A stretch of 32,453 nucleotides of DNA from an uncultured virus (IMG/VR IMGVR_UViG_3300033170_000477) (Duplodnaviria; Heunggongvirae; Uroviricota; Caudoviricetes), in the IMG/VR virus record IMGVR_UViG_3300033170_000477, one strand, 5' to 3'. Positions 4,954 to 32,453 of this stretch are shown here, one piece after another. Positions within the stretch are counted from its first letter, which is position 1. Each line of letters starts with the position of its first letter. The notes beneath the pieces are model-generated. The model saw only the letters and a list, made by a program, of their open reading frames with translations. It did not search any database and was not told the origin of the DNA. The position numbers and the translations under genes are program-made.

Positions 4954-6181
4954 AAAGAAGAACACAAAAGACCTCATCCCTGCAACATACAATCCTCGTA
5001 AAGATTTGAAACCAGGAGATGCAGAATACGATAAATTAAAACGATCCATTGAACAATTTGGTTATGTAGAGCCGGTTATCTGGAATAAGGTGACCGGCCA
5101 TGTTGTTGGTGGGCATCAAAGACTGAAGGTTCTCATGGATATGGGCATCACAGAAGTTGAGTGTGTCATCATTGAAATGGACGAAGAAAAAGAAAAAGCA
5201 CTCAACATCGCGCTCAATAAAATTAGCGGTGATTGGGATAAGGATAAATTAGCTCTTTTAATTGCAGATTTACAAGGTGTAGATTTTGATGTTTCCCTAA
5301 CTGGATTTGACCCTAAAGAACTAGATGACTTATTTAAAGACACGCTGAAAGAGGGGATCTACGATGATGACTTTGATGTGGAGGAAGAACTTAAAAAACC
5401 AGCAATCAGTAAGTTTGGTGACATCTGGACGCTTGGCAGACACAGGCTTATCTGTGGTGACTCCACCCAGAAAGAAACCTATGATCTGCTGATGAATAAA
5501 AAGAAGGCAAACTTGTGCGTAACAGATCCTCCCTACAATGTGAATTATGAAGGTGCTGCAGGGAAAATCAAAAATGACCATATGGCAAATGATGCCTTCT
5601 ACCAGTTCCTCTTAGATGCCTTTATCAATATCGAAGAAGTCCTGGCAGACGATGCCTCCATCTACGTATTCCATGCCGACACCGAAGGGTTTAATTTTAG
5701 AAAAGCCTTCTCGGATGCCGGTTTTTATTTGTCCGGATGTTGTATTTGGAAAAAGGACTCCCTTGTACTGGGTCGTTCTCCTTATCAATGGCAGCATGAA
5801 CCAGTGCTGTTTGGCTGGAAGAAGAAAGGCAAGCATCAGTGGTATACAGGCAGGAAAGAAACCACCATCTGGGAATTTGATAAGCCAAAGAGAAATGGCG
5901 ACCATCCTACGATGAAACCCATCCCTCTGCTCGCCTATCCGATTTTGAACTCCTCGATGACTAACACCATTGTGCTAGATCCTTTTGGCGGCAGTGGTAG
6001 CACCTTAATTGCTTGTGAACAATCAGAGCGCATTTGCTACACGGCAGAATTAGATGAGAAGTTTTGCGATGTCATTATCAAACGCTACATTGAACAGGTT
6101 GGAACTTCCAAAGAAGTCAGTGTTCAAAGAGACGGGCTTAGCTATGGTTTTGATGAGTTGGAATTAGCTGCGGATGAGTAG
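4943..6181 (+). CDS. ParB-like N-terminal domain plus N6-adenine/N4-cytosine DNA methyltransferase
   Basis: YNPR...GGHQR ParB-like region; catalytic TDPPYN precedes HPTMKP and SAM-binding DPFGGSGST (beta-class order); 11-nt overlap with metK. Confidence 0.93.
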   Translation: MLIEKKNTKDLIPATYNPRKDLKPGDAEYDKLKRSIEQFGYVEPVIWNKVTGHVVGGHQRLKVLMDMGITEVECVIIEMDEEKEKALNIALNKISGDWDKDKLALLIADLQGVDFDVSLTGFDPKELDDLFKDTLKEGIYDDDFDVEEELKKPAISKFGDIWTLGRHRLICGDSTQKETYDLLMNKKKANLCVTDPPYNVNYEGAAGKIKNDHMANDAFYQFLLDAFINIEEVLADDASIYVFHADTEGFNFRKAFSDAGFYLSGCCIWKKDSLVLGRSPYQWQHEPVLFGWKKKGKHQWYTGRKETTIWEFDKPKRNGDHPTMKPIPLLAYPILNSSMTNTIVLDPFGGSGSTLIACEQSERICYTAELDEKFCDVIIKRYIEQVGTSKEVSVQRDGLSYGFDELELAADE

Positions 6182-15184: not shown

Positions 15185-15201
15185 CAAAGGAGGTGGAAAG
15201 C

Positions 15202-17808
15202 ATGGCAGATAATTTTGGTTTGAAGATTGGTCTTGAAGGCGAGAAAGAATTTAAGAAGGCATTAACAGATATCAATCGCTCCTTTAAAGTACTTGGCTCT
15301 GAAATGAAACTGGTAGCTTCAGAATTTGATAAAAACGATAAGTCTGTCCAGGCTCTTTCCGCCAGAAATTCAGTCCTCAATAAAGAGATTGAAACCCAAA
15401 AAAGCAAAATTGATACCTTGAGGTCGGCTCTTGAAAATGCAGCTACTTCCTTTGGAGAAACCGATAGAAGAACGCAAAATTGGCAGATTCAGCTAAATAA
15501 CGCAGAGGCTGCACTCAACAATATGGAGCGAGAGTTAAGTAGCAATAATGCTGCTCTTGAAGAAGCAAACTCCAATTATGATGATGCCGAAGATGCTCTC
15601 GATGACATGAACCGTGAAATGAACGATGTCACCCACAGTGCAGATGATATGGGAAAAGAGATTGATGAGGCAGCTGACTCTGCTGAAAAATCCGAATCTA
15701 AGTTTAAAGGCTTAGGTACAACTTTAAAATCTATCGGCATTGCCATGGGAGCAGTTGCTGTTGCAGCAGGTGCGGCGGCTGTCAAACTTGGTAAAGAAGT
15801 CATTTCCGCTTATGCCGATTACGAGCAATTAGTCGGTGGTGTGGATACGCTTTTTAAAGAGAACTCTCAGCAGTTACAAGACTATGCATCGAATGCCTAT
15901 AAGACGGCAGGTCTTTCTGCCAATGACTACATGGAAACCGTCACTTCTTTTTCTGCAAGCCTTATTTCTTCTCTTGGAGGGGATACAGAAAAAGCCGTTA
16001 AATATGCGGATATGGCGATCACCGATATGTCTGACAATGCTAATAAAATGGGTACAGACATGGAGTCCATTCAAAATGCCTATCAGGGTTTTGCCAAGCA
16101 AAATTACACCATGCTAGACAACCTAAAACTTGGATATGGTGGTACAAAAAGTGAAATGGAGCGACTCCTTGCCGATGCCGAGGCCATCTCTGGTATTGAG
16201 TATGATGTTTCTTCGTATGCCGATGTAGTTTCTGCCATCCATGTCATTCAAGAAAGCATGGGTATTGCTGGTACGACTGCTCTTGAGGCAGAGGAGACTA
16301 TTTCAGGATCCTTGAATGCCTTTGAATCAGCTTTACAAAATCTTTTCGTTGGTTTTGGAAATGCTGATGCGGATATGGAACAACTCAGTAAAAACATGGT
16401 GGATGCCTTTCAGTCTGTGGTAAAAAACATTACCCCAGTGATTGAAAATATCGTAAAGGCCCTGCCCATCGCAATTGAAGCATTATTGGATGCGGTTTCT
16501 GATTTGTTACCGACACTGCTTGCTACGGTGACAGATTTATTTACTCAGGTACTGAACGCACTGATGAACCTACTACCTACCTTAATACCGGTAGCAGTTG
16601 ATTCCATCCTTACGATTGTGAATGCCTTAATTGAAAACTTACCACTGCTAGTGGATGCGGCCGTTCAGTTAATTGCAGCTTTAGTGGATGGTCTTGGGCA
16701 GGCAATGCCAGAACTGATTCCTGCGGCAGTTAATGCAATTACTACGATTGTGCAAGGTTTGGTTGATAATCTACCCATGCTGCTTGATGCAGCACTGCAG
16801 TTAATACTTGGTTTGGCTCAGGGGCTACTCGAAGCGATCCCGCAACTAATTGTGGCTCTCCCTACGATTATCTTGGCAATCGTTGATTTTATTATTAGCG
16901 CAATTCCTCAGATTATAGATGCAGGTATTCAGTTACTAACATCGCTGGTTACAGCCTTGCCTGAAATTATTACGGCTATTGTAGAGGCGATTCCACAGAT
17001 AATTGATGGGATATTGAATGGAATTTTAAGTTCGATTCCACAACTCATTCAAGCGGGTGTCGACTTACTTGTTGCACTGGTTCAAAATCTACCGACCATT
17101 ATTACCACCATTGTTGCAGCGATACCTCAAATCATTTCAAGTATTGTAAATGCATTAATTGGAAACATCGACAAGATCATTATGGCAGGGGTTCAGCTAT
17201 TTGTAGCACTCATTCAGAATTTACCAACCATTGTGGTAGAGATCGTAAAAGCAGTGCCTCAGATTATTGGCGGCATCGTCAGAGCATTTACAAACTCCAT
17301 GGGTTCAATCGTGACGGTGGGTGGCAACATTGTAAAAGGACTATGGCAGGGTATTCAATCCCTTGCTTCTTGGTTATGGAATAAAGTGAGTGGTTGGATT
17401 AGTGGCATTTGGACTGGCATCAAGGATTTCTTCGGTATCAAGTCACCATCGAAACAGATGGGGTGGGTTGGAGAAATGCTTGTGAAAGGTCTTGCAGGTT
17501 CTATCCAAGATAACGGTGATGAGGCTGTAAAAGCAGCTGAGATGATGAGCGAGGATATCAGCGATGTGATGACCAGTCTTGCCAGTGATATGAGTACATC
17601 CTTGCCTACAGAATTTTCAGTGGATACTTCCGTTGGTGGTGTGATTTCAAATGCAGCCACTTCTTCCCTAGGCGGTGTCAGTGGATCGCTAGTTACTGTA
17701 CAGCAGATGATTGTACGAAGTGAAGATGATATCAGAAGGGTATCTCAGGAACTTTATAACTTAATTCAAACAGGCTCTCGTGCTCAGGGTCGATTTTCTA
17801 CAACATAA
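15202..17808 (+). CDS. Tail tape measure protein (868 aa)
   Basis: MADNFGLKIGLEGEKEFK start, long helical region, many amphipathic L..LP.II repeats, FFGI.SPS motif; AAGGAGG RBS. Confidence 0.95.
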   Translation: MADNFGLKIGLEGEKEFKKALTDINRSFKVLGSEMKLVASEFDKNDKSVQALSARNSVLNKEIETQKSKIDTLRSALENAATSFGETDRRTQNWQIQLNNAEAALNNMERELSSNNAALEEANSNYDDAEDALDDMNREMNDVTHSADDMGKEIDEAADSAEKSESKFKGLGTTLKSIGIAMGAVAVAAGAAAVKLGKEVISAYADYEQLVGGVDTLFKENSQQLQDYASNAYKTAGLSANDYMETVTSFSASLISSLGGDTEKAVKYADMAITDMSDNANKMGTDMESIQNAYQGFAKQNYTMLDNLKLGYGGTKSEMERLLADAEAISGIEYDVSSYADVVSAIHVIQESMGIAGTTALEAEETISGSLNAFESALQNLFVGFGNADADMEQLSKNMVDAFQSVVKNITPVIENIVKALPIAIEALLDAVSDLLPTLLATVTDLFTQVLNALMNLLPTLIPVAVDSILTIVNALIENLPLLVDAAVQLIAALVDGLGQAMPELIPAAVNAITTIVQGLVDNLPMLLDAALQLILGLAQGLLEAIPQLIVALPTIILAIVDFIISAIPQIIDAGIQLLTSLVTALPEIITAIVEAIPQIIDGILNGILSSIPQLIQAGVDLLVALVQNLPTIITTIVAAIPQIISSIVNALIGNIDKIIMAGVQLFVALIQNLPTIVVEIVKAVPQIIGGIVRAFTNSMGSIVTVGGNIVKGLWQGIQSLASWLWNKVSGWISGIWTGIKDFFGIKSPSKQMGWVGEMLVKGLAGSIQDNGDEAVKAAEMMSEDISDVMTSLASDMSTSLPTEFSVDTSVGGVISNAATSSLGGVSGSLVTVQQMIVRSEDDIRRVSQELYNLIQTGSRAQGRFSTT

Positions 17809-17820
17809 GGAGGTGTGCCG

Positions 17821-18597
17821 ATGGGTTTTTCATATAACGATGTTTCTTCAAAAAGCATGGGACTAAAAGCCAGGCTCACTTCCTGGCAGGTCTGTGGAGG
17901 GATGCGAAATTTTACCACCACCGTACCTGGAAAGTATGGTGTGACAGACTTTGGGGCTGATTTTGATTATCGAGAAATCAATGTATCTTGTAATATTTAT
18001 CCCAAGCACAGCTTTTCTGCTCTGGTGACTACCCTTGACGAACTTTCAGCATGGCTTGATCCCATGCAAGGATTAAAAGAACTTGTTTTTGACGATGTAC
18101 CCGACAGGTATTTCATGGCAAGGCTGAATGAGAAAGTGGACTGTGAACGACTCATTCGTTTTGCAGGAAGTTTCAACTTGAAGTTTTTCTGTCCTGATCC
18201 TTTTGCTTATGCCATTACGGATGAGAATTATTTAATAGAAAGCGAAGGAAGTCACACGATTACAAGACAGACCGGCAATGTTGAATCCAATCCTATGTAT
18301 CGCTTGAAGGGAATCATCACATCGGGTGTGCACAATTTTATTTCTGTTACAACCAATGGCTTGGAAATGAAAATAGTGAATGCTGTACTTTTGGCAGAAG
18401 AAACCCTTGTCATTGATACAGATAAGATGACGGCTTATGTGGAAGACGAAAACGGGATAATCTTAAGAAACGCTTTGCCATACCTAGAGGAGATTGATTT
18501 TCCAAGTTTCAATGTAGGCAATAATACCCTAGCAATAACAACGAATAATGCTGTGTTTACAGCGCTTGAAATAAAGGCTCGCAGTAGATGGAGGTGA
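17821..18597 (+). CDS. Distal tail protein (Dit)
   Basis: Follows tape measure; GF.YN...S..MGL, VPG..G, L.FDD.PDRY..A, F.CPDPF.Y, FP....G.N, R.RW. Start 17815 or 17821. Confidence 0.9.
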   Translation: MGFSYNDVSSKSMGLKARLTSWQVCGGMRNFTTTVPGKYGVTDFGADFDYREINVSCNIYPKHSFSALVTTLDELSAWLDPMQGLKELVFDDVPDRYFMARLNEKVDCERLIRFAGSFNLKFFCPDPFAYAITDENYLIESEGSHTITRQTGNVESNPMYRLKGIITSGVHNFISVTTNGLEMKIVNAVLLAEETLVIDTDKMTAYVEDENGIILRNALPYLEEIDFPSFNVGNNTLAITTNNAVFTALEIKARSRWR

Positions 18598-18601
18598 TCC
18601 A

Positions 18602-21127
18602 GTGGCACTAAAAACAATATTAAATAAACAGACAGATTTTACGGGAGAGTTCCCAGTTGAGTATGCAAAATCTGGACTGTGGCGGTTCAATGATGTATCG
18701 GTAGATGAAAATGGCTATCTTGCAGACTCTTCTGGGTTAGATAGAAAAATAGAGCTTGTCAATTATCTAGGAACAACTGCAAGCCTTCAAAGCGGGCAAA
18801 AAGGGAGACAAATCCGAATCAACATCAACAATCCCGCTACAGAAAAAACCTACCTTAAAGTGGCCAATGATGGTACTTTCTTTTCGGAGATGGGAGAACG
18901 AATCCTTGTTGGCGGTTGGATGATACCGACTACTTATTCGGTAGGAAATACCTATTGCCCCATATTAAATACGCGCTATGGTCCTGGTCAGCCTATCTTT
19001 TACCTGTCGCTCTTTGCAGGCAGACCTAGAATCATGCTTTATAACGCTAGTGGTTCTCTTATACTCGACCAAACAACCACACCGCCTTTTTCACTTATCA
19101 ATGGTGGAGTGTATTTTATTTGCATGGTCATAGAGCCAAACAATAAAAATGCATGGATTGTACTGGGAGATAGGACGAATGAAATAAGCTGGGTATCCCC
19201 GACCTATTCCTTTACAGGCTCACTAAACCCTTCTTGTACGGCCGACATCATTATGGGCATGCATTCGGATGCCTATTGGTATGCTGGAAGATTTGATGAT
19301 TGGTTTTTTGATATGGATTCAAGTCTTACAGTGGATGATTTGATTGATTATTTCAATGGGTCTCTTTTGACTAACGGTGGTGATATGGGCGGTGCTGTTG
19401 ATGCCCTTAGCGTACCGGGAGTGGTGAGCTTAAGGGAGACAGAAGGTGTCTATCCAACGGAAGGAATACTATATACGGCTCCGGCAACGTGCAATCTGTC
19501 TGGCACAGGTCGGGTATCTGTTACCAGTGAATATATTTCTGGGGTAACTGCAGTTGGGCCAATAGAAACCTCAACAAGCGATGACCTGGTTCATTGGAGT
19601 GATTGGGCAGCCATCGCACTTGATGGAAAACTGGTATCTCCGAATAAGGCATACATTCGTTTTAGGGTTACGCTTACTACGGCAGATACGAGTAAGACCC
19701 CTCGAATCATTGATATCAGGCTTTATGATATTCCAAAATCCCCTTATGAGAGGATTGGTTTTGCAAGACCTGTCGTACTGGATTCGAATGGAGCATGGGA
19801 GGCTGTGTTAGAAAATGCCTATAACATTGTGGTAACCAGTGAAATCAATGGCGAGGATACGCTCTCCTTTATGATCCCCTATCGTGATCCCAAGCGGGGA
19901 TTTATTGATAGTGAAAAGAAAATCCAGATTGTTGATGACGTCTACAAAGTAAGGACTTTGACGGATACAAAAGATAGCGAAGGAAATCTAGCGACAGAAG
20001 TGTATGCTGAGGCAGAGTTTTATGACCTGACTTTTTCAGTGCGAAAAGAAGAGCATAAATTTGATGCAGAAACTGCTGAAGTCTCCATGGCATATGCGTT
20101 AGAAGGAACAGAGTGGAGTGTAGGCACAGTCAATGTGCGAACTAAAAGAACCTGGACGAGTACAGAAAAGAATGCTCTTTCCATCCTTCGCACGATTGCT
20201 GACTTACACGGTGGTGATCTCGTCTTTGATTGCCCTAATAGGCTAGTCCATCTCTTAACGGTCTATGGTACGGATAGCGGTGCATTATTTGCCTATAAGA
20301 AAAATATGAAGAGCATTAAAAGAGTCGTGGATACCAGAAGTCTTGTGACAAGGCTCTATGCCATTGGTAGCGATGGTCTTACTTTTGCAGACATCAATGG
20401 AGGAAAGGCATATGTGGAGGACTATACGTATTCGTCTGATATTCGAATATCAACGATTGATTGTTCTTCCTTTACCAATCCCTATCAGATGAAAGAATAT
20501 ACCGAGATGAGGCTTGCTCAGTATTCAAAACCAAACATCTCTTATGTTTTAAACGCAATGGATTTATCGGTGTTAACGGGTTATGAGCATGAAGCATGGT
20601 CGCTTGGCGATTATGTTCATGTAGAAGATAAAGATTTAGGACTGTCGGTGACAACTCGTGTTATACGAAGAGAATACAACTTACAAGAACCATGGAATAC
20701 AGTATTAGAACTATCCACTACCCTTAAAAATCTGGGCAGTTCTGCAAGCCAGTGGGACAATGTAGCAGATTCTCTTGAAGGCACAAGTATGGTTACAAAC
20801 AATGATATCCGTGAAATGGTGCCATTTAATTTATTGCGAAATTCTCGTGGTGATGATGCGATGGCTTATTGGATTAACTCAGGCTTTGAAGTAGATGGTG
20901 ATAACGGCGTGAGCGGTACTGCATCGTTTAAAGCAATGGGTGTAGCAAATATGACAAAGAGCATGGCTCAGACCATCTATCCAGCGAATCGTTCTAGCTA
21001 CACACTCTCGGCACAAATCGCATCTGAAAACCTAGAAAAGCTGAGTAGCGACTCACAGGTTGGCATTGAAGTGGTTATTGAATATGAAGATGGGACGACA
21101 GAAACAAGATTTATTGATTTGTATTAA
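18602..21127 (+). CDS. Tal-like tail spike: N-terminal LamG/lectin-like region, central gp27-like hub, C-terminal partial CBM-like domain
   Basis: Hub region from about 19766 (EINGEDTLSF, VTRLYAIG.DGL, LGD.V.V.D..LG....RV..REY); C-terminal NLLRNS...W segment from about 20825. Confidence 0.8.
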   Translation: MALKTILNKQTDFTGEFPVEYAKSGLWRFNDVSVDENGYLADSSGLDRKIELVNYLGTTASLQSGQKGRQIRININNPATEKTYLKVANDGTFFSEMGERILVGGWMIPTTYSVGNTYCPILNTRYGPGQPIFYLSLFAGRPRIMLYNASGSLILDQTTTPPFSLINGGVYFICMVIEPNNKNAWIVLGDRTNEISWVSPTYSFTGSLNPSCTADIIMGMHSDAYWYAGRFDDWFFDMDSSLTVDDLIDYFNGSLLTNGGDMGGAVDALSVPGVVSLRETEGVYPTEGILYTAPATCNLSGTGRVSVTSEYISGVTAVGPIETSTSDDLVHWSDWAAIALDGKLVSPNKAYIRFRVTLTTADTSKTPRIIDIRLYDIPKSPYERIGFARPVVLDSNGAWEAVLENAYNIVVTSEINGEDTLSFMIPYRDPKRGFIDSEKKIQIVDDVYKVRTLTDTKDSEGNLATEVYAEAEFYDLTFSVRKEEHKFDAETAEVSMAYALEGTEWSVGTVNVRTKRTWTSTEKNALSILRTIADLHGGDLVFDCPNRLVHLLTVYGTDSGALFAYKKNMKSIKRVVDTRSLVTRLYAIGSDGLTFADINGGKAYVEDYTYSSDIRISTIDCSSFTNPYQMKEYTEMRLAQYSKPNISYVLNAMDLSVLTGYEHEAWSLGDYVHVEDKDLGLSVTTRVIRREYNLQEPWNTVLELSTTLKNLGSSASQWDNVADSLEGTSMVTNNDIREMVPFNLLRNSRGDDAMAYWINSGFEVDGDNGVSGTASFKAMGVANMTKSMAQTIYPANRSSYTLSAQIASENLEKLSSDSQVGIEVVIEYEDGTTETRFIDLY

Positions 21128-21139
21128 GGAGGTGGATTG

Positions 21140-21337
21140 GTGGCTTATTTTTCAAGAACATCAGAAAAGATACTCCCAGAAAGCTACTCTTCAAAAGTAA
21201 AATCCATTACCATCCGTGTCTGTGTCACAAATTGCACCGGTACTTTTTATATTACGGATCTCTTTTTACAAGCAGGCTCAGTGGTCACGGGATGGGTAGG
21301 TCATCCCTGTGAAATAAGGTGGACGTTAGATGGTTAA
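21140..21337 (+). CDS. Small tail-tip protein resembling the C-terminal half of a CBM-like beta-sandwich
   Basis: TAAGGAGGTG SD; TTG 21137 or GTG 21140 start; TGTFYITDLFLQAGSVVTGW.GHP motif; same frame as the upstream spike gene. Confidence 0.75.
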   Translation: MAYFSRTSEKILPESYSSKVKSITIRVCVTNCTGTFYITDLFLQAGSVVTGWVGHPCEIRWTLDG

Positions 21338-21914
21338 GGTTAAATTTATCAGGTTAGCGGAAGTGATAAATAAAAAACAAGATAAGCGTGTCATGAGTGT
21401 AAGCATAAAACCTACCCTCTATGATTGCACTGGCATGATTTGGTTTACGGACATCCAGTTACAAGAAGGACCTGTTCTAAATGGTTATGCACCTCATACA
21501 GAGAGCAGGTTAGAAAAACTAAAAGAAGATGGCAGTATCAAGGATCCTGTTTGGTTTAACGGTGTGGTGCGTTCAGAAGAAACTATTATTTTATTTAATG
21601 TCGGTGAAACCTCTGCAGGACTTGATATTCATATCTATCCAAAGCTTTCTATGTCTGCTGGAACAGTGAAACTAAGCCAAGGTATAGGAGGGCAACAAGT
21701 ATCCTTTCCTAGAGAAATTGAAAAAGATGCTGATTTGGCACTTCTAGCATCCACGCGAACTTGTACCAAAAACGGAGTCAGCGAACCCAAAGAGGGGTTC
21801 TATCAATACAGTGCTGCCTGGGACTCAAAGCACAAAGTGACCCTTGAAAAAGGGAAATCTGCAAGGGTGCTGTTTACCATGCAGGAAATGCAAGACGGAG
21901 GTGAACCATTCTAA
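21330..21914 (+). CDS. Tail-tip protein whose first ~60 aa are paralogous to the preceding small ORF
   Basis: CTGMIWFTDIQLQEGPVLNGYAPH versus CTGTFYITDLFLQAGSVVTGWVGH; overlaps both neighbours. Confidence 0.8.
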   Translation: MVKVKFIRLAEVINKKQDKRVMSVSIKPTLYDCTGMIWFTDIQLQEGPVLNGYAPHTESRLEKLKEDGSIKDPVWFNGVVRSEETIILFNVGETSAGLDIHIYPKLSMSAGTVKLSQGIGGQQVSFPREIEKDADLALLASTRTCTKNGVSEPKEGFYQYSAAWDSKHKVTLEKGKSARVLFTMQEMQDGGEPF

Positions 21915-24382
21915 TGGAACGACTAAAAGGCAAGAAAGTCATGGTGTGGACTTTTATGGGCAATGCACGAATGTATGAAGCTTTAGAGAAATACGGAGAC
22001 CGGATTGATACCATCGGTCTTTTTTCTTTTAAGGTACGAACTACCGGTGAGATTGTTGAGAGTGGTGTCACCATCAGCAGTATGCTCCCCTACATCAACC
22101 GTTATCGTCACATCAAATGGCTACTGACCATCGCCAATGATGGTGCAAACAGTATTTTCAGAGCATTGAGAGATAACTCAAATGGCGCTCAGGAACTGTT
22201 TCTATCCGAGCTTATTCGCATTATGAAAAAGTATCCGTGGTGTGATGGTATTGATATTGACCTAGAAAGAGGCGATGACTATTCCACTCATGCTGAGTCA
22301 ACCGCCATGTTTCAAAACATTTACAACACCATCAAAGCCTATGATTCAAGCAAACTGATGAACATTTGCCTTCCAGGTATGACCAGTGTCAATGGTTCAG
22401 TAGGTGGTGAGAATTGGTGCGTTTACGGTGACTTAGACCCCTATTGCGATACCGCATCAATTATGAGTTATGGTATGGCTTGGTCAGGTTCTGCACCGGG
22501 ACCTGTATCTCCAAGAAGCTGGCTTGAAGGAATTTATGATTATGCCGTTACAGTGATGAATCCCGATAAGATTTTCTTTGGGATGCCTGCTTACGGCTGG
22601 AACTGGCAAATCTATGACACACCAGAAAACCTAGGCAAAGCCTACCGAGGAACGTCCCATACCTACTATGCTGCAAAATACTGGATGACAGGAGTCTATA
22701 ACTTCACAGATGATGCTCCTCCTCAACCGTTTATTCCCATCGTGGCTTACTGGGATGATGAGAATAAAGTGCCTTGGGCCTTACCTCATGTCTACGATTA
22801 TATGGAAGGAAGAGATGCCACTCGCTATAGCTATCCACTCTTATCTGCAAGCTACAATGGAAGACAGTATCTGACGGCCTATGGCAAACAACAAAAGTCA
22901 GCCTTTGGCACTATTTATGTGGATCGCGATGCCATACCGGATAGTTATTCTGGTGTTGTTTCTGTTTCTAATAGCGTCACAACACTGGGGGATGAAGGTG
23001 CGGCAACCTATCATTTTACGCTTGCTCAGGCAGGTACTTATGATGTAGCAGTAAAGCTAGGCTTTCCCTTTTGGGATAAGAATAGTATTCACATCTCCCT
23101 TGATGGAAATGAAGTAGATTTTTCTGAAAACAGACTGTGGTGGCCTTATTGGAGAACGACTTTCTGGACGGTACTGAAAAAAGGAGTGAGCCTTTCTCAA
23201 GGAACACATACCATCACCATTTCGCTTGGGGCAAAGGGTGCACAGTTTTATGGATTTAGAGTCTGTTCTTCATTTTCTGAGGAGCCATCAGTTGGTGAAG
23301 CAGAATATACCCTTGCTCCTAGACATTTCAAAGATGTAAATGGTGATATGGTAGGACCTGCAACTGGTTTTAAGTTGACGCTTGAGATGCTTAGAAGAAA
23401 AGCAGATTCTGCCCTTGTGTGGTATGAGGATTTTAGAGATGATAACCCTCTCCCCCAAAGCTACTGGACAACATTATCAGGCGAATGGAGTGTTTGGCAA
23501 GATACAAGCAGTTCGATGAATAGACCCTATTCCCAACTGGAGGGTAAGGGGCAGTTAGCATGGAACTACAACAATTTTTCAGATATACATTTAAGGGCGC
23601 AGATTATTTTTCCTGAGACCTTTAGTGGCAAGGCAGGTGTTTTTATTGGAACGATTTATTGTTGCTTTAATTATGATAACCAGCGTATTGAACTGTATGA
23701 AGGTTCTACTTTAAAAGGTAGTTATGCCACCAGCTTTTCAAAAACATCGGCCGCAAACATTCGATCGAATCCAAGCTTTTACACTCTAGAAATTCGAAAG
23801 CGTGGCAATCAAGTGCGGGTCTATTCCTCTGCATCCAATACACTGCGCTTTACAGCCACTTGCTCGGATGTGACAGGGTATGCAGGTATTCGTTCGGATA
23901 ATAAAGTCCATTGCCAGTTGCTTCGCTTAGGCGATGCTTGGACCTATGAGCCTTATGAACGCTTTGACGTGCTTATGCCAGATGGGGCATTTAAAACATA
24001 TGGTCGGCTATCAAGAAGTAACTGTTCTTGGGATGATGAGTTTCAAGTATTTACTTTAACAGCAGACCTTGAAGAATCAGCCACAAGAAGTGAAAGCATC
24101 TCCCTAGATTATGATTTTTTTCATTCAGATATGATGCCATCCATTCAGTGTGGAAATGACTACAGTGTCACCATCATTCCAAGGGATATTAACATCTGGA
24201 TATCTCGTATTTTCTTAGGTGATGGTGACGGATTTTCCATTCTTTATTATCAGGATGTGGATAGCCTTGTGTACTGGGCAAATGAAGCAGCTTATCGGTG
24301 GAAACTTCGAGGCATGTGTATGTGGTCACTAGGGCAGGAGGATTTAAGACTCTGGGAGTGGCTACCAAAACAAATAGAGTAA
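21914..24382 (+). CDS. Glycoside hydrolase family 18 protein with large internal beta-sandwich insertions; probably tail-associated
   Basis: DGIDIDLE catalytic motif at 22244-22267, IMSY, KIFFGMPAYG..W, terminal YYQD..SL...LRGMCMWSLGQED. Confidence 0.88.
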   Translation: MERLKGKKVMVWTFMGNARMYEALEKYGDRIDTIGLFSFKVRTTGEIVESGVTISSMLPYINRYRHIKWLLTIANDGANSIFRALRDNSNGAQELFLSELIRIMKKYPWCDGIDIDLERGDDYSTHAESTAMFQNIYNTIKAYDSSKLMNICLPGMTSVNGSVGGENWCVYGDLDPYCDTASIMSYGMAWSGSAPGPVSPRSWLEGIYDYAVTVMNPDKIFFGMPAYGWNWQIYDTPENLGKAYRGTSHTYYAAKYWMTGVYNFTDDAPPQPFIPIVAYWDDENKVPWALPHVYDYMEGRDATRYSYPLLSASYNGRQYLTAYGKQQKSAFGTIYVDRDAIPDSYSGVVSVSNSVTTLGDEGAATYHFTLAQAGTYDVAVKLGFPFWDKNSIHISLDGNEVDFSENRLWWPYWRTTFWTVLKKGVSLSQGTHTITISLGAKGAQFYGFRVCSSFSEEPSVGEAEYTLAPRHFKDVNGDMVGPATGFKLTLEMLRRKADSALVWYEDFRDDNPLPQSYWTTLSGEWSVWQDTSSSMNRPYSQLEGKGQLAWNYNNFSDIHLRAQIIFPETFSGKAGVFIGTIYCCFNYDNQRIELYEGSTLKGSYATSFSKTSAANIRSNPSFYTLEIRKRGNQVRVYSSASNTLRFTATCSDVTGYAGIRSDNKVHCQLLRLGDAWTYEPYERFDVLMPDGAFKTYGRLSRSNCSWDDEFQVFTLTADLEESATRSESISLDYDFFHSDMMPSIQCGNDYSVTIIPRDINIWISRIFLGDGDGFSILYYQDVDSLVYWANEAAYRWKLRGMCMWSLGQEDLRLWEWLPKQIE

Positions 24383-26149: not shown

Positions 26150-26441
26150 AGTGGTAAATGATATGCGAAGTCTTGCTGACAGCATACAGGCGGTTTGTAA
26201 TGCAATGGCAGAAAGTGATTCTGCTCCCAAAGAAGTGCCTGCCACAAAGACAGAAACAGCAAACGAGCCGGATATCCCACTGGAAAAAGTGCGTATGGTA
26301 CTTGCTGAAAAGAGCCAGATTGGGTTTACTGCCGAAGTGCGAGGACTCATTCAAAAGTATGGTGCAGACAAGTTAAGTGCGGTTGACAAGGCTTACTACG
26401 CTGACATCTTGAAAGATGCGGAGGAGCTTGGAAATGGGTAA
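26124..26441 (+). CDS. Conserved phage hypothetical protein
   Basis: TTG start after AAGGAGG; MSKIKLLL.V..DMRSLADS, LE.VR.VLA.KS..G.TAEVR.LI.KYGA.KLS. Confidence 0.8.
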   Translation: MSKIKLLLEVVNDMRSLADSIQAVCNAMAESDSAPKEVPATKTETANEPDIPLEKVRMVLAEKSQIGFTAEVRGLIQKYGADKLSAVDKAYYADILKDAEELGNG

Positions 26442-27570
26442 TCATGCAATATTATCTGCATCCTCATCCCACAGGTGGCTCAACTGCCTACCCTCTGCAA
26501 GACTTGAACAGGAGTTTGAAGACCAAAGTGGTGAGGCAGCAAAAGAAGGCACAGCGGCTCATGACCTGTGTGAACACAAACTAAAAAAGGCACTTCATAT
26601 GAGAAGTCAGCGACCTGTCTCTGAGTATAACTCTGATGAGATGGAGGAATGTACAGATGCTTACGTTGACTTCGTTATGGAGCAGGTGGAACTTGCAAAA
26701 ACAAAATGCAAGGATCCAATCGTCCTTATCGAACAGCATCTTGATTTTTCATGCTATGTACCAGACGGCTTTGGAACAGGAGATTGCGTGATTATCGCGG
26801 ATGACAGACTTCACATCGTAGACTTTAAATATGGACTGGGTGTGCTAGTCGATGCCGTGGACAATCCACAGATGAAGCTCTATGCCCTAGGAGCGCTTGG
26901 AATCTATGACCACCTGTACGACATTAAAGAAGTGTCTATGACCATCTTTCAGCCAAGAAGAGAAAATGTCAGCACCTGGACAATACCGGTGGAAGAACTA
27001 AAAGGCTGGGCGGAAGAAGAACTAAAGCCCAGAGCTGACAAAGCCTTCAACGGTGAGGGTGAATACATCCCCGGTCCATGGTGTACCTTCTGTAAAGCGG
27101 CAAACAGATGTCGGGCCAGAGCCGAAGAAAAGATAAAACTTGCAGAGAAAGAATTCAAGATGCCACCTCTGCTGACGGATGCTGAGATAGAAGAAATCTT
27201 ACTTATTCTTCCCGACCTTACCAAGTGGGCGAATGAAATAACAGCCTATGCCACTGATGCAGCAGTCAATCACGGTAAAGAGTGGAACGGTTTTAAAGTT
27301 GTGGAAGGTCGCTCGGTTCGCAAGTACAAAGATGAAGCAGCCATTGCAGAAAAAGCCGTGGCAGGTGGATATAAGGACATTTACAGAAAGAGCCTTATTC
27401 CGCTGACAGAGATGCAAAAACTGATGGGTAAATCCAAATTTGAGGAACTCCTCGGTGACCTCATTTACAAACCACCGGGTAAGCCGACTCTTGTTCCAAA
27501 TTCAGATAAAAGACCGGCTATGAACGTAGCACATGCTAAAAACGAATTTAACGAAATTATGGAGGATTAA
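26434..27570 (+). CDS. DUF2800 / Cas4-like PD-(D/E)xK nuclease
   Basis: HA.LSASSSHRWLNC, EGT.AH, GFGTGD, DFKYG, Q.KLYALG, WC.FC.A...CRAR; GGAG RBS before ATG 26434. Confidence 0.88.
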   Translation: MGNHAILSASSSHRWLNCLPSARLEQEFEDQSGEAAKEGTAAHDLCEHKLKKALHMRSQRPVSEYNSDEMEECTDAYVDFVMEQVELAKTKCKDPIVLIEQHLDFSCYVPDGFGTGDCVIIADDRLHIVDFKYGLGVLVDAVDNPQMKLYALGALGIYDHLYDIKEVSMTIFQPRRENVSTWTIPVEELKGWAEEELKPRADKAFNGEGEYIPGPWCTFCKAANRCRARAEEKIKLAEKEFKMPPLLTDAEIEEILLILPDLTKWANEITAYATDAAVNHGKEWNGFKVVEGRSVRKYKDEAAIAEKAVAGGYKDIYRKSLIPLTEMQKLMGKSKFEELLGDLIYKPPGKPTLVPNSDKRPAMNVAHAKNEFNEIMED

Positions 27571-27575
27571 ATATT

Positions 27576-28127
27576 ATGGCAAATATGCAAAACAAAACAA
27601 AAGTTATCACAGGTGTAAACTCAAGATTTTCTTACTTCCACGGATGGGAGCCTGTATCTATTAATGGTGGTGCAGAAAAGTACAGCGTATCCGTTCTTAT
27701 TCCAAAGGATGACAAGGAAACCATCAATGCTATCCATGCAGCAGTTGATGCTGCCATTGAGGAAGGTATCGCAAAGTTTGGTGGTAAGAAACCAAATAAG
27801 GCAGCCATTAAACTACCGCTGCGTGATGGTGATGTAGAGCGTGATGATGAGGCTTATAAAGGCCATTACTTCATCAATGCGAATAGCAAGACAGCGCCAC
27901 AGATTGTAGACAAAAGTGTTAAGCCGATACTGGATCGTAGCGAGGTATACAGCGGTTGCTATGGCAGGGTTTCTCTTAACTTCTATGCTTTCAACTCAAA
28001 TGGTAATAAAGGTGTAGCTTGTGGTCTTGGTAACATTCAAAAAATTAGAGACGGAGAACCTCTAGGCGGTAAGACTTCTGCAGTAGATGATTTTACGACT
28101 CTTGTCGATGATGACTTCCTTGCCTAA
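27576..28127 (+). CDS. DUF2815 single-stranded DNA-binding protein (T7 gp2.5-like)
   Basis: RFSY, KYSVS.LIPK.D, PLRDGD, YSGCY, GL.NIQK.RDGEPLGG, acidic DDDFLA tail. Confidence 0.88.
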   Translation: MANMQNKTKVITGVNSRFSYFHGWEPVSINGGAEKYSVSVLIPKDDKETINAIHAAVDAAIEEGIAKFGGKKPNKAAIKLPLRDGDVERDDEAYKGHYFINANSKTAPQIVDKSVKPILDRSEVYSGCYGRVSLNFYAFNSNGNKGVACGLGNIQKIRDGEPLGGKTSAVDDFTTLVDDDFLA

Positions 28128-28146
28128 AAGGAATAGAAAACTTGAT

Positions 28147-28179
28147 GGTGGTGGAGGTCTTCCCTCTGCCACCTTTTTT
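28147..28179 (+). terminator. Terminator-like hairpin between SSB and DNA polymerase
   Basis: GGTGGTGGAGG-TCTTC-CCTCTGCCACC then TTTTTT. Confidence 0.75.
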
Positions 28180-28200
28180 CATTTAGGAAAGGTGGTAGCT

Positions 28201-30141
28201 ATGAAGAACTTAGAAATCGATATCGAAACCTATTCATCTACCAATCTACAAAAAAGTGGTGTTTATCGTTACGTAGAAGCAGATGATTTTGAGGTGATGC
28301 TGTTTGGTTATGCGATTGACGGTGGTGAAGTTAAGGTCATCGATTTGAAGAATGGAGAAAGGATTCCAAAAGAAATCCTAGATGCCTTAACCGATGAAAC
28401 CATTACGAAGTGGGCATTTAATGCTCAGTTTGAGCGAGTATGCCTTTCACGTTATTTAAGCTACCCTACTGGGACTTATCTAAATCCTTCCTCATGGAAA
28501 TGTTCCATGGTTTGGTCTGCCTATATGGGTTTACCACTTTCTTTAGAAGGTGTAGGTGCAGTGCTAGGGCTTGAAAAACAAAAGCTGACAGAGGGTAAAG
28601 ACCTGATCCGTTACTTTTGTGTTCCCTGTACTCCAACAAAAACAAATGGCGGTAGAACTCGTAATTTGCCAAACGATGAAAGAGATAAATGGCAGCAGTT
28701 TAAAGCATATAACAAGCGTGATGTGGAGGCAGAAATACAGATACAACAAAGATTGATCAAGTTTCCAGTACCAGAGGACATCTGGGATGAGTATCATCTC
28801 GACCAAGAAATCAACGATCGAGGCATAAAGGTGGATATGGATTTTGTTAAACAGGCCATCGCCATGGATGACATATCTCATGAAAAACTACTAACTGCCA
28901 TGCAGCAGATAACAAATCTCGATAACCCAAACTCTGTACAACAGATGAAAAGCTGGCTTTGTGAAAATGGTCTAGAGATGGAGACTCTCGGTAAAAAAGC
29001 TGTCGCTGAGAAACTTAAGGAAACCGATGGTGAACTAAATGAAGTTCTTTCACTTCGTCAGCAACTGGCAAAATCCTCAGTAAAGAAATATACAGCAATG
29101 GAAAATGCGGTCTGTAGTGATTCTCGTGCCAGAGGGATGTTTCAGTTTTATGGAGCAAACAGAACCGGACGCTTTGCCGGAAGGCTTGTGCAATTACAAA
29201 ACCTCCCTCAAAATCATATGCCAGATTTAAAAGAGGCGAGAAATATTGTCAGAAATGGTGATGTTGAAACACTGGAACTGCTCTATGAAGATATACCTGA
29301 TACCCTTTCACAACTGATTCGTACAGCCTTTGTACCTAGAGTGGGTCATAAGTTTATTGTGGCTGACTTCTCAGCCATTGAGGCTCGTGTGCTTTCATGG
29401 CTTGCAGGCGAAACATGGCGAACAAAGGTATTTGCTAGTGGTGGCGATATCTACTGTGCATCTGCCTCCCAGATGTTCAGTGTTCCCGTTGAAAAGCATG
29501 GTGTGAACGGTCACTTGAGACAGAAGGGTAAAATTGCTGAATTGGCACTTGGATATGGTGGTTCTCTTGGTGCGCTAAAAGCCATGGGTGCATTAGAGAT
29601 GGGGCTTGAAGAGGAAGAATTAAAACCGCTTGTGAATACCTGGAGAATGTCTAATCCCAACATCACACAGTTCTGGTGGGATGTAGATCGGGCGGCTAAA
29701 CAATGCGTGAAGGAAAACAAATTACAAGAAACCCATGGCATCGAGTTTCATTGTTTTAGTGGCATGCTTTTTATCGTTCTTCCCTCTGGCAGAAGGCTTG
29801 CCTATGTAAAACCTCGAATTGGTGAGAATCAGTTTGGTGGTGAGTCTGTTACCTATGAAGGAGTAGGTGGAACAAAGAAATGGGAGCGTCTTGAAAGTTA
29901 CGGTCCTAAGTTTGTAGAGAATATTGTTCAAGCCATCTCCCGTGATATTTTAATGTATTCAATGAAGATGCTTAGTACTTATCGTATTGTGGCTCATGTC
30001 CATGATGAAGTAATTATTGAAGCGAATCCTCAAATAGCGGTTACTGAAGTATGTAAACAGATGAGTCAAGTGCCACCTTGGGCAAAAGGGCTGCTTCTTG
30101 ACGCCGATGGCTATGAATGTGACTTTTATCAAAAAGATTAA
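28201..30141 (+). CDS. Phage family A DNA polymerase with 3'-5' exonuclease domain
   Basis: IDIETYS, AFNAQFE, YN.RDV exonuclease motifs; RTGRFAG, QLQNLP, DFSAIEARV (motif A), RQKGK.AELALGYG (motif B), HVHDE (motif C); AAAGGTGG RBS before ATG 28201. Confidence 0.95.
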   Translation: MKNLEIDIETYSSTNLQKSGVYRYVEADDFEVMLFGYAIDGGEVKVIDLKNGERIPKEILDALTDETITKWAFNAQFERVCLSRYLSYPTGTYLNPSSWKCSMVWSAYMGLPLSLEGVGAVLGLEKQKLTEGKDLIRYFCVPCTPTKTNGGRTRNLPNDERDKWQQFKAYNKRDVEAEIQIQQRLIKFPVPEDIWDEYHLDQEINDRGIKVDMDFVKQAIAMDDISHEKLLTAMQQITNLDNPNSVQQMKSWLCENGLEMETLGKKAVAEKLKETDGELNEVLSLRQQLAKSSVKKYTAMENAVCSDSRARGMFQFYGANRTGRFAGRLVQLQNLPQNHMPDLKEARNIVRNGDVETLELLYEDIPDTLSQLIRTAFVPRVGHKFIVADFSAIEARVLSWLAGETWRTKVFASGGDIYCASASQMFSVPVEKHGVNGHLRQKGKIAELALGYGGSLGALKAMGALEMGLEEEELKPLVNTWRMSNPNITQFWWDVDRAAKQCVKENKLQETHGIEFHCFSGMLFIVLPSGRRLAYVKPRIGENQFGGESVTYEGVGGTKKWERLESYGPKFVENIVQAISRDILMYSMKMLSTYRIVAHVHDEVIIEANPQIAVTEVCKQMSQVPPWAKGLLLDADGYECDFYQKD

Positions 30142-30149
30142 AGAAATCA

Positions 30150-30194
30150 TCAGATTTCACCTCCTGCCATGGCTACTAGGTAGGAGGTGTTTTT
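30150..30194 (+). promoter_or_regulatory. Bipartite motif B, copy 2, overlapping a terminator-like hairpin that sequesters the next RBS
   Basis: TCAGATT-N13-TGGCTACTAGGTAG at 30150-30183; CACCTCCTGCC 30158-30168 pairs with GGTAGGAGGTG 30179-30189, then TTTTT. Confidence 0.7.
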
Positions 30195-30196
30195 CT

Positions 30197-30412
30197 ATGA
30201 ACATTTATGAAGTAAAAGATGGATCTCCGTTAAAGGGTAAGACCGATCAGATGACAGAGGAAGAATTACAAAAGGAATATGACTTTCATATAGCCGAGAG
30301 TATTGTCGCAAACCTACATAAAGAAGGCAAAATCACAGCGGATGAATTACACAAAATATCAGTCTTGAACAGGCAGAAATTCTCTCCCCGTTTAGCCGAT
30401 ATTATGTCCTAA
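30197..30412 (+). CDS. Small SHOCT-like protein preceding the recombinases
   Basis: ATG 30197 after GGAGGTG; L...G.IT.DE..KI...NR..FSP.LA.I pattern. Confidence 0.75.
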   Translation: MNIYEVKDGSPLKGKTDQMTEEELQKEYDFHIAESIVANLHKEGKITADELHKISVLNRQKFSPRLADIMS

Positions 30413-30450
30413 AAAGCTTGCTATTAATAGCTTTTAGAGTGATGTATGTA
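30411..30450 (+). promoter_or_regulatory. Bipartite motif A, copy 2
   Basis: 31/40 identical to 6250-6289; contains palindrome GCTATTAATAGC 30420-30431; 20 nt upstream of the recombinase start. Confidence 0.7.
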
Positions 30451-30470
30451 ATGGGCGAAAGCGAGGTGAG

Positions 30471-32036
30471 ATGATGAAAAAGATAACAAAAATAGATGAA
30501 CTGCCCCAGGGACAACTACCTACTACGAAACTTAGGGTTGCCGCTTATGCCAGGGTCTCAACCGATAGTGATGAACAGCTTGAAAGCCTTAAAGCACAGC
30601 GTGAACACTATGAGCGCTATATTAAGTCTAATCCTGAATGGGAGTTTGCTGGTCTTTATTATGACGAAGGGATCTCCGGCACCAAGATGGAGAAACGGAC
30701 TGAACTGCTCCGCATGATACGAGATTGTAAGCAAGGTCGGATAGATTTTATTATCACCAAATCAATCAGCCGCTTTGCTCGTAATACAGTAGATTGCCTA
30801 GAGTTAGTAAGAAAGCTGATTGATATCGGTGTTTACATTTATTTTGAAAAAGAGAATCTAAATACGGGTGATATGGAAAGTGAGCTGATGCTTTCTATTC
30901 TTTCAGGATTTGCCGCAGAAGAGTCTGCATCTATTTCACAAAACTCAACATGGTCCATTCAAAAGAGATTTCAAAACGGTAGTTATGTAGGTACTCCACC
31001 CTATGGATATACCAATATAGATGGTGAAATGGTAATCGTCCCAGAAGAAGCAGAAATCATAAAACGTATTTTTGCAGAGTGCCTTTCAGGAAAAGGTGGA
31101 GGTACTATAGCAAGAGGTTTGAACAAAGACAAAATCCCTGCAAGACGAGGTAATCACTGGAGTGCAGGCACGGTGATAGACATGCTTCGAAACGAAAAAT
31201 ATATGGGTGATGTCCTACTACAAAAGACTTACACAGATAGTAACTACAATCGCCATCCAAATACAGGCGAAAAAGACCAGTATTACTACAAGGATAATCA
31301 TGAACCTATTATAAGTAGAGAAGACTTTGCTAAGGCACAAGATCTCATTGATGAAAGAGCCAAGATGAAGTGTAAGGGCGTGAAAAAGAACGTTTATCTT
31401 AATCGATATGCTTTAAGTGGCAAGATCGTCTGTGGAGAATGTGGTCGCAATTTTAGGAGAAAGACAAACTACTCAGTTGGTAGGAGTTACATTGCTTGGA
31501 GTTGCATCGGTCATATCGAAGACAAAGAGAGTTGCTCCATGTTGTTCTTGCGAGATGGGGAAATCAAAGCCACATTTACAACCATGATGAATAAGCTTGC
31601 TTTCAGTAACAAGCTAATCCTAGAGCCACTTTTCAAATCAATTAGCCAAATCGATGAAGAAAGCGACCGTAAAAGAATGGACGCTATTGATAAGCGAATG
31701 GAGCAACTCATGGAAGAATGCAACACCCTTATTACACTGATGGCCAAAGGTTTCCTGGAGCCAGCTCTTTTTAATCAGGAACGAAATGTTTTAGATAGTG
31801 AGATGAAAAATCTTTCAACTGAAAAAACAAACCTTGTATCAAATTCCACGAGTGGGATTTTGCGAGCAAACGAGATAAAGGACCTCATTGATTACGTGTC
31901 AGCAGATAATTTTATTGGTGACTACACGGAAGAATTATTTGAAGAATTTGTAGAGAACATCATTGTAAATTCTAGGGAGGAGCTGACATTCAATTTGAAA
32001 TGTGGTCTTTCCCTGAAAGAAAAGGTGGTGAGATAA
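30471..32036 (+). CDS. Large serine recombinase (integrase)
   Basis: VAAYARVST catalytic serine, DEGISGT, KSISRFARN, PYGY recombinase domain, NEKY.GD, CGECG...C...C zinc ribbon, coiled coil. Confidence 0.95.
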   Translation: MMKKITKIDELPQGQLPTTKLRVAAYARVSTDSDEQLESLKAQREHYERYIKSNPEWEFAGLYYDEGISGTKMEKRTELLRMIRDCKQGRIDFIITKSISRFARNTVDCLELVRKLIDIGVYIYFEKENLNTGDMESELMLSILSGFAAEESASISQNSTWSIQKRFQNGSYVGTPPYGYTNIDGEMVIVPEEAEIIKRIFAECLSGKGGGTIARGLNKDKIPARRGNHWSAGTVIDMLRNEKYMGDVLLQKTYTDSNYNRHPNTGEKDQYYYKDNHEPIISREDFAKAQDLIDERAKMKCKGVKKNVYLNRYALSGKIVCGECGRNFRRKTNYSVGRSYIAWSCIGHIEDKESCSMLFLRDGEIKATFTTMMNKLAFSNKLILEPLFKSISQIDEESDRKRMDAIDKRMEQLMEECNTLITLMAKGFLEPALFNQERNVLDSEMKNLSTEKTNLVSNSTSGILRANEIKDLIDYVSADNFIGDYTEELFEEFVENIIVNSREELTFNLKCGLSLKEKVVR

Positions 32037-32453
32037 ATGGCATATATTCCATATGGATACAAAATTCAAGACGGAGTGGTTACTGTCGATGAAAAGGCAG
32101 CAGGTCAAGTAAAGGTATTCTTTGAGAAATACATATCAGGACTATCCCTTACAGTGGCTGGCGAACAGGCAGGTATTGATAAGACACACTCAGTAATGGG
32201 ACGTATTTTGAAAAACGTCAACTACCTTGGAAATGATACGTATCCAGCAATTATTGATAAAGAGATATTTGATAAAGCTGAAGAAGTTAGAGATAAGCGT
32301 GCAAAGGATTTAGGACGAGTGGTAGAGCTTGCCGCTTTCACCTCTCCCCCTCCCAAAGAACGATTTAAAATGAGAAAGGCAGATAATAAGATGCCAGTTG
32401 ATCCTTTTGAACGAGCAGAATACTTATATAGTCTGATAGAAAGCGAGGAATAA
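32037..32453 (+). CDS. Short recombinase-DNA-binding-domain protein lacking a catalytic domain
   Basis: Begins IPYGY, has IL.N..YLG...YPAII..E.F..A; no Y.R.S motif; TAA at 32451-32453. Confidence 0.8.
   Translation: MAYIPYGYKIQDGVVTVDEKAAGQVKVFFEKYISGLSLTVAGEQAGIDKTHSVMGRILKNVNYLGNDTYPAIIDKEIFDKAEEVRDKRAKDLGRVVELAAFTSPPPKERFKMRKADNKMPVDPFERAEYLYSLIESEE

Follow-up and report, generated by a model that had tools for sequence, protein, structure and literature searches.

A conserved three-gene split at the siphophage tail tip suggests a Tal beta-sandwich completed in trans by two paralogous plugs

We analysed a 32,453-nt stretch of DNA from an uncultured Caudoviricetes virus (IMG/VR IMGVR_UViG_3300033170_000477; hereafter the window) with respect to three consecutive tail genes, encoding the tail-tip protein Tal and the products of the two open reading frames (ORFs) behind it, ORF2 and ORF3. 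With moderate confidence, we propose that Tal ends in a split jelly roll that is completed in trans, which would anchor ORF2 and/or ORF3 at the Tal tip. The last ~100 residues of the trimeric Tal would form an incomplete jelly roll of the carbohydrate-binding module (CBM) type with about seven strands, here called the socket. The three missing C-terminal strands would be encoded apart and twice, as the 65-aa ORF2 and as the first ~57 residues of ORF3, here called the plugs. Each plug, translated from its own start, would complete the Tal sandwich by fold complementation and would thereby be locked non-covalently onto the tail tip. In this scheme, ORF2 would act as a cap and nothing more, while ORF3 would add a galectin-like platform domain of the Dit type.

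The gene at 18602..21127 (+ strand) encodes Tal, the tail-tip spike of 841 aa. This assignment is based on gene order, with its place after the tape measure and Dit genes, and on hidden Markov models (HMMs) scoring above their curated cut-offs, namely PF18994 Prophage_tailD1 at aa 390–471 (54.5 bits, cut-off 23.6), PF06605 Prophage_tail at aa 473–717 (263.8 bits, cut-off 31.3) and TIGR01665 (119.6 bits, cut-off 26.75, E = 1.5e-34); the corresponding PHROG family is phrog_3475, 'minor tail protein'. The ~124 residues after the Prophage_tail domain had no Pfam match. The socket at 20825..21124 (+) starts with F742 of the motif FNLLRNS at nt 20825 and ends with RFIDLY, followed by the TAA stop codon at 21125–21127; it is predicted to hold seven strands, as the N-terminal part of a jelly-roll beta-sandwich. 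Ahead of Prophage_tailD1, Tal carries an N-terminal extension of ~390 aa (nt 18602–19770). Many socket-bearing homologues are only ~440–510 aa long and would lack this extension.

ORF2 (21140..21337, +; phrog_3473) begins with GTG and shares the frame of Tal, from which it is separated by TAA plus 12 nt containing AAGGAGG. The Shine-Dalgarno (SD)-like sequence AAGGAGGTGG at 21126..21135 (+) overlaps the Tal stop codon. The ORF list had begun ORF2 at TTG 21137, but the gene was taken as 21140–21337 (65 aa) because its relatives begin with MAYF, which aligns with GTG 21140. ORF3 (21330–21914, +; 194 aa) starts 8 nt before the end of the ORF2 stop codon, the overlap comprising nt 21330–21337, and an SD-like AAGGTGG lies at 21316..21322 (+) within the 3' end of ORF2. 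Residues 1–59 of ORF3 (21330..21506, +) are the second plug. Residues 60–194 together with the stop codon (21507..21914, +; phrog_12827, 'tail protein') correspond to a galectin-like beta-sandwich of the type seen in the C-terminal domain of Dit. All strings that the original prediction had quoted from the spike, ORF2 and ORF3 are present in these places.

ORF2 and the first ~57 aa of ORF3 are true paralogues, as had been claimed from the letters alone. They share 17 identities over 52 positions in BLASTP (E = 1e-9), and a profile–profile comparison of the two families gave a probability of 98.5% (E = 1.8e-15, 56 columns). The PHROG families were matched crosswise, ORF2 hitting phrog_12827 with E = 7.7e-12 and ORF3 hitting phrog_3473 with E = 9.6e-5. 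Core positions common to both plug families are V.S..V, C(T/S)G, TD, LQ.G and G(W/Y)..H, whereas past this shared motif the families diverge, with GHPSEIxWxxD in ORF2 and GYxPHTE in ORF3. Six-frame scans of the window, L001, L003, L004 and L005 with HMMs built from relatives found one socket and two plugs in each of these five sources, and no additional socket or plug above noise. The ORF2 family consists of diverse proteins of ~63–66 aa; its profile matched only designed 'Pizza' repeat proteins in the PDB, through the word GTVWVTD, and ORF3 gave chance matches only by sequence.

The C-terminal tail GHPSEIxWxxD at aa 55–65 of ORF2 (nt 21302–21334) is strongly conserved across the family. It lies outside the sandwich modelled below, with a predicted local distance difference test (pLDDT) score of ~30, and may bind something absent from the model. 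A plug was also seen in a 115-aa protein (P0093), behind an N-terminal extension of ~50 aa that is probably helical and without a socket; this may be a third kind of plug-bearing protein.

The division into three genes is strictly conserved. Among 166 sources of relatives surveyed, 161 were complete with all three parts and 5 were incomplete, and in all 161 complete relatives the parts lay on three separate genes. In an earlier set of 86 sources, 81 contained the complete trio, each part as its own ORF. The one source marked 'fused?' (L005) owed this mark to an artefact of best-hit assignment; the small ORF exists in L005. A scan with one genome per species returned 80 loci, and each of these contained an ORF with the socket as its exact C-terminus, followed by exactly two plug ORFs.

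ORF2 is a real gene under selection. It has its own start in 161/161 loci (ATG in 107, GTG in 54) and an SD-like motif upstream in 159/161, and its median ratio of non-synonymous to synonymous substitution rates (dN/dS) was 0.064 in 51 comparisons. The spacer between the Tal stop codon and ORF2 measures 9–18 nt, and in 61/161 loci its length is not divisible by three. The 8-nt overlap between the ORF3 start and the ORF2 stop is kept in 159/161 loci, which suggests a translational coupling that could fix the ratio of ORF2 to ORF3.

The arrangement extends beyond close relatives. Three 'Ca. Heliusvirales' gut phages are annotated with this gene order, as are, at 23–43% protein identity, Bacillus phage BSP7 and the Weizmannia phage Youna2. 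A tblastn search with ORF2 located the small gene also in phages of Geobacillus and in 166 records of Microbacterium phages. From these records, two loci were inspected, Geobacillus phage TP-84 and one Microbacterium phage, Agente005. In both, a Tal with socket is followed by a plug protein of ~60–70 aa and by a next protein with an N-terminal plug; the plug score of Agente005 gp22 is weak (E = 0.026). The three-gene arrangement is old and widespread, from Bacillota phages to Microbacterium phages. Agente005 (L167) has an extra 160-aa gene, gp23 (4785–5267), between its ORF3-like gene and the gene for a large minor tail protein of 709 aa.

An exhaustive search for fused forms used the read-through translation of socket plus ORF2, with X at the stop codon, as phmmer query against 1.84 billion representative proteins at E ≤ 0.001. 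It gave 162 matches, and among the 150 listed, 89 covered the socket only, 59 the plug only and 2 crossed the junction. Of the listed socket-only matches, 76/89 reach the socket end; 67 of these 76 stop no more than 2 residues from it, and none runs on for more than 20 residues. The listed plug-only matches are short as well, 54/59 having at most 92 aa. The junction-spanning and long plug matches inspected, which were all such matches but the 114-aa P0151, did not hold as fusions: P0012 becomes frameshifted where the socket ends, P0062 is a noisy 132-aa fragment with garbled flanks and a Q in place of the stop, P0084 and P0132 show chimerism or deletion, and P0149 has an unrelated tail. No credible Tal–plug fusion was seen among the 150 listed matches, and the comparison of split and fused forms proposed with the original prediction came out on the side of the split. 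A word-indexed search of longer proteins with the ORF2 family profile gave two matches (209 and 221 aa) among 8000 scored candidates, which is weak evidence.

These data bear on the explanation that the split is an artefact, with a longer Tal cut short by a sequencing error or by a nonsense mutation of recent date, or that a programmed read-through or frameshift yields a Tal–ORF2 fusion. The shared frame and short distance (TAA plus 12 nt) in the window would suit it, as would the Q in the fragment P0062. However, the spacer frame varies among loci, ORF2 has independent starts, SD-like motifs and a low dN/dS, the boundary is maintained from Bacillota to Microbacterium phages, and a credible fused protein is missing among the listed matches. 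Read-through, frameshift and pseudogene formation were rejected because the three-gene boundary is conserved together with independent initiation of and selection on ORF2, and we regard an artefact as scarcely credible.

Socket plus ORF2 were modelled as one read-through chain by AlphaFold2, on an alignment of 14 rows with 72–98% identity to the query. The model has a mean pLDDT of 60 and a predicted template modelling (pTM) score of 0.62, with a core at residues 41–110 (pLDDT 68–88). The socket strands lie at model residues 26–104 and three long plug strands of ORF2 at residues 114–156 (pLDDT 58–78). The chain folds as one sandwich and aligns to whole single-chain CBMs across both halves; it is of the CBM-type beta-jelly-roll fold, that is, a two-sheet domain of ~140–170 aa that can be superposed on solved CBMs along its full length. 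In two structure searches, one of them independent of Foldseek and covering 48,161 chains, all 50 listed matches cover both halves, and in the Foldseek-independent search each of the 50 listed rows extends to model residue 155 or beyond. The best matches in BFVD were CBM-type domains, each contained in one tail protein, from phages of Bacillus, Gordonia and Mycobacterium. Conservation of the split and the models support the view that the C-terminus of Tal and the N-termini of ORF2 and ORF3 behave as two parts of one beta-sandwich.

Comparison with a complete relative points in the same direction. The socket aligns to residues 6–100 of a complete domain of ~165 aa in P0033 (E = 1.4e-3). P0033 itself (281 aa) has one such complete domain of the socket/plug kind, followed by a C-terminal half-socket, and is possibly an evolutionary intermediate or a different tail protein using the same joint. 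The profile of phrog_22322 extends 68 positions past the socket alignment, and ORF2 did not match those positions. The Tal sequence had no match in the PDB at E ≤ 0.01. The sole PDB match of the socket profile was marginal, to the N-terminus of the CBM16 structure 2zez_A (E = 0.53), and feature matches in the ESM-Atlas to CBM_4_9 clusters scored just 0.79–0.80, with all matches of the socket there below 0.9, which makes them leads only.

ORF3 was also modelled alone, on an alignment of 33 rows. Residues 60–191 were predicted confidently, whereas residues 1–59 had mean pLDDT values of 28–55 per 10-residue block, and because of these low values the plug of ORF3 is taken neither to fold by itself nor to pack onto its own C-terminal domain. 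The idea of a circular permutation, with ORF3 completing its own plug, finds no support in this model. That each piece might fold as a complete domain alone, which would have spoken against a divided fold, was not borne out for the ORF3 plug.

Alternatively, the socket may be a self-sufficient small beta-sandwich and the plugs independent three-strand units that dock at most by edge-strand augmentation, in the manner of many latches on phage fibres, or act elsewhere. With ~100 aa and seven strands the socket has the size of an immunoglobulin (Ig)-like domain, no Pfam CBM family matches, and beta-sheet complementation between folded modules is known from the side fibres of monocin, according to the accessible text of PMC11830787. 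Yet all 50 listed matches in each of the structure searches extend over both halves, the plug of ORF3 stays unfolded and unpacked when ORF3 is modelled alone, and the socket aligns just to the first 100 of the ~165 residues of its complete relative. We consider a self-sufficient socket quite improbable.

Several observations weigh against a jelly roll divided between Tal and the plugs. The fused model is just moderately confident, and residues 1–38, which include NLLRNS, as well as residues 159–176 have pLDDT values below 50; the alignment behind it is shallow (14 rows); and the predictor may pack a tethered chain more readily than two free chains. A piece of 100 aa with seven strands also matches in size an Ig-like sandwich that needs no partner. 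The homology of the socket to a complete domain is weak and comes from the single comparison with P0033. By sequence, Pfam returned no family on the read-through chain at E ≤ 10, neither CBM_4_9 (PF02018) nor any other, and no CBM family on Tal, ORF2 or ORF3 at E ≤ 1, so the CBM4/9-like character that had been ascribed to the sequence did not stand; nor were residues of a carbohydrate-binding site identified. The claim of one fold divided between genes is in better shape, since the split is conserved, the read-through chain models as one sandwich and the ORF3 plug is unfolded alone, with the moderate model confidence as its weak side. Likewise, the expectation that the concatenated halves match a single beta-sandwich was borne out by the structure model, through matches to whole CBMs, but not by a Pfam CBM family.

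Data on phage TP-84 point both ways. Mass spectrometry (MS) detected TP84_23 (Tal) and the ORF3 counterpart TP84_25 in purified virions, which speaks for the proposal, whereas TP84_24, the 7.9-kDa counterpart of ORF2, was not among the proteins detected according to the accessible part of the report (PMC5889276). The weight of this non-detection is lessened because gel-slice MS readily overlooks proteins as small as 7.9 kDa. Taken at face value, it would suit a role of ORF2 as a transient assembly chaperone that completes the Tal fold and is later displaced by ORF3, leaving mature virions with ORF3 only. The strong purifying selection on the whole 65 aa, including the conserved C-terminal tail, is compatible with a chaperone as well as with a permanent cap. 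Given how easily a protein of this size escapes gel-slice MS, we hold the chaperone role to be very improbable.

Both plug genes are present in every complete locus, and therefore they are argued to be non-redundant. This may reflect mixed occupancy of the three sockets or a division of labour between the plugs. In a division of labour, ORF2 would fill all three Tal sockets, and the ORF3 plug would complete or augment another partner, such as a cryptic half-domain in the neighbouring glycoside hydrolase family 18 (GH18) protein, Dit or ORF2. The retention of both genes in 161/161 complete loci fits such distinct roles, ORF2 directly follows the socket, and the two families differ past their shared motif. 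However, the six-frame HMM scans found one socket-like sequence per source in the five sources, with the proviso that a diverged second one could escape a sequence search, and both plug families share the core positions that would be expected if they face the same surface. On balance, we think such a division of labour unlikely.

Returning to Tal sockets that accept either plug, a tentative and rather doubtful extension is that the permanently gene-split jelly roll serves as a universal plug-and-socket joint on the tails of many Gram-positive siphophages. The three sockets of a Tal trimer would then be occupied by cap and adaptor together, in a constant ratio perhaps set by the 8-nt coupling, resulting in an asymmetric tip with a polysaccharide depolymerase in low copy number. 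As the original prediction had supposed, the arrangement might thus break the symmetry of the trimer, and ORF3 might mount the GH18 enzyme.

The C-terminal part of ORF3 would be suited to an adaptor. ORF3 had no Pfam match at E ≤ 1, but residues 60–191 of its model superpose on the Dit C-terminal galectin-like domain, and the structural matches of residues 59–191 are to residues ~133–283 of Dit only. ORF3 was not taken as Dit, because the N-terminal tube-like (RIFT) ring domain is absent and the window has its own Dit gene at 17815–18597. Thus ORF3 is composed of a plug and an extra domain with the Dit-type galectin fold, as the original prediction had stated in more general terms. By its modelled fold, this domain fits an adaptor role; in the accessible text of PMC11830787, the galectin-like domain of Dit helps to hold side fibres.

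The next gene, at 21914..24382 (+), overlaps the ORF3 stop codon by 1 nt and encodes a 'minor tail protein' of 822 aa (phrog_3432). Judged from PF00704 (49.4 bits, cut-off 29.6) and a sequence motif, its product is a predicted member of the GH18 glycoside hydrolases, in agreement with the earlier assignment. The GH18 catalytic motif is DxxDxDxE, and DGIDIDLE is found at aa 111–118 (nt 22244–22267). Its relatives in the PDB are GH18 proteins of the YdhD/YaaH type (E = 3.6e-9 to 2.6e-4). The enzyme would probably be held in or near the tip assembly and digest host surface polysaccharide at adsorption. Its GH18-like counterpart in TP-84, TP84_26, is a capsule depolymerase that, in the accessible text of PMC10131341, occurs in soluble form in lysates and gives a faint band with virions purified on caesium chloride (CsCl), and it was not found in the virion MS as far as given in the accessible text of PMC5889276. 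These data fit a low-copy enzyme that may be held non-covalently.

Together, these genes belong to a siphophage late operon that comprises the tape measure gene (15193–17808), which precedes Dit, then Dit, Tal, ORF2, ORF3, the GH18 protein, a holin and an endolysin. Downstream of the endolysin, at 26416–32453, five ORFs of 138–684 aa follow on the + strand, the last of which is cut by the end of the window. The DNA of the tail module is ~95% identical to that of Streptococcus uberis phage Javan630 and Erysipelothrix phage phi1605. Sockets with 92–99% identity occur in prophages of Anaerosphaera, Clostridium algidicarnis, Hespellia, Allofustis, Anaerotignum, Enterococcus lemanii, Tissierella and Heyndrickxia (loci L086–L102), an unusually broad distribution of near-identical tail genes across Bacillota. 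Prophages resembling phi1605 have reportedly been linked to the carriage of resistance genes in Erysipelothrix.

If Tal is completed by the plugs as proposed, the joint would be a simple and genetically modular means by which phages fix accessory proteins to the trimeric tip of the tail. It would explain phrog_3473, a family of 'unknown function', as well as phrog_12827 and phrog_3432, which are named only as tail proteins. These three families co-occur in 'Heliusvirales' prophages from the gut, in phages of Bacillus, Geobacillus and Weizmannia and in at least one phage of Microbacterium. It would also provide a structural hypothesis for a capsule depolymerase of the TP-84 type that is both free and virion-bound, and a natural split-domain pair with possible uses in phage display or in the engineering of tails, in harmless model phages. 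Phages already in cultivation would allow a direct test of the idea.

Among known systems, TP-84 resembles the window most directly in layout, with a Tal carrying the socket (TP84_23), a 69-aa plug protein (TP84_24), a 299-aa protein with an N-terminal plug (TP84_25), the GH18-like glycosylase TP84_26, a holin and an endolysin. Unlike in the window, its Tal continues for ~25 extra acidic residues past the socket, and TP84_25 is longer and has an insertion in its plug. In the accessible text of the TP-84 papers, TP84_24 is called 'unknown' and TP84_25 'distal tail protein', and a split domain is not described there (PMC5889276, PMC10131341). The galectin-like domain of ORF3 has its likeness in the C-terminal domain of Dit, as in SPP1 gp19.1, monocin FtbK, phage NF5 and Douge; there it is part of Dit, whereas in ORF3 it is fused to a plug and comes without the N-terminal tube-like domain.

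Chaperone-usher pili use donor-strand complementation, and single-chain CBM jelly rolls (CBM70 4d0q, CBM16 2zew/2zez, CBM4-2, the central fibre Douge gp20 and CBA120 TSP4) are made from one polypeptide, whereas here the last three strands are encoded on separate genes and, unlike the named CBM domains, socket plus plug matched no Pfam CBM family by sequence. In agreement with the original prediction, our literature search, which covered few subscription journals, found no description of a jelly roll permanently split between genes with two paralogous completing pieces, nor did a sequence search of solved structures. The closest mechanical parallel is the latch of the monocin receptor-binding protein on the FtbN hook, where likewise strands of one subunit finish or extend the sheet of another in a stable non-covalent joint, according to the accessible text of PMC11830787. 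In monocin and pili, the contribution is edge augmentation or one donated strand, whereas in the window either of two paralogous genes is predicted to supply three long strands, about a third of the jelly roll. Beta-sheet complementation joints are already known from phage tails and pili, and what would be new is a jelly roll permanently split across genes and served by two paralogous plugs.

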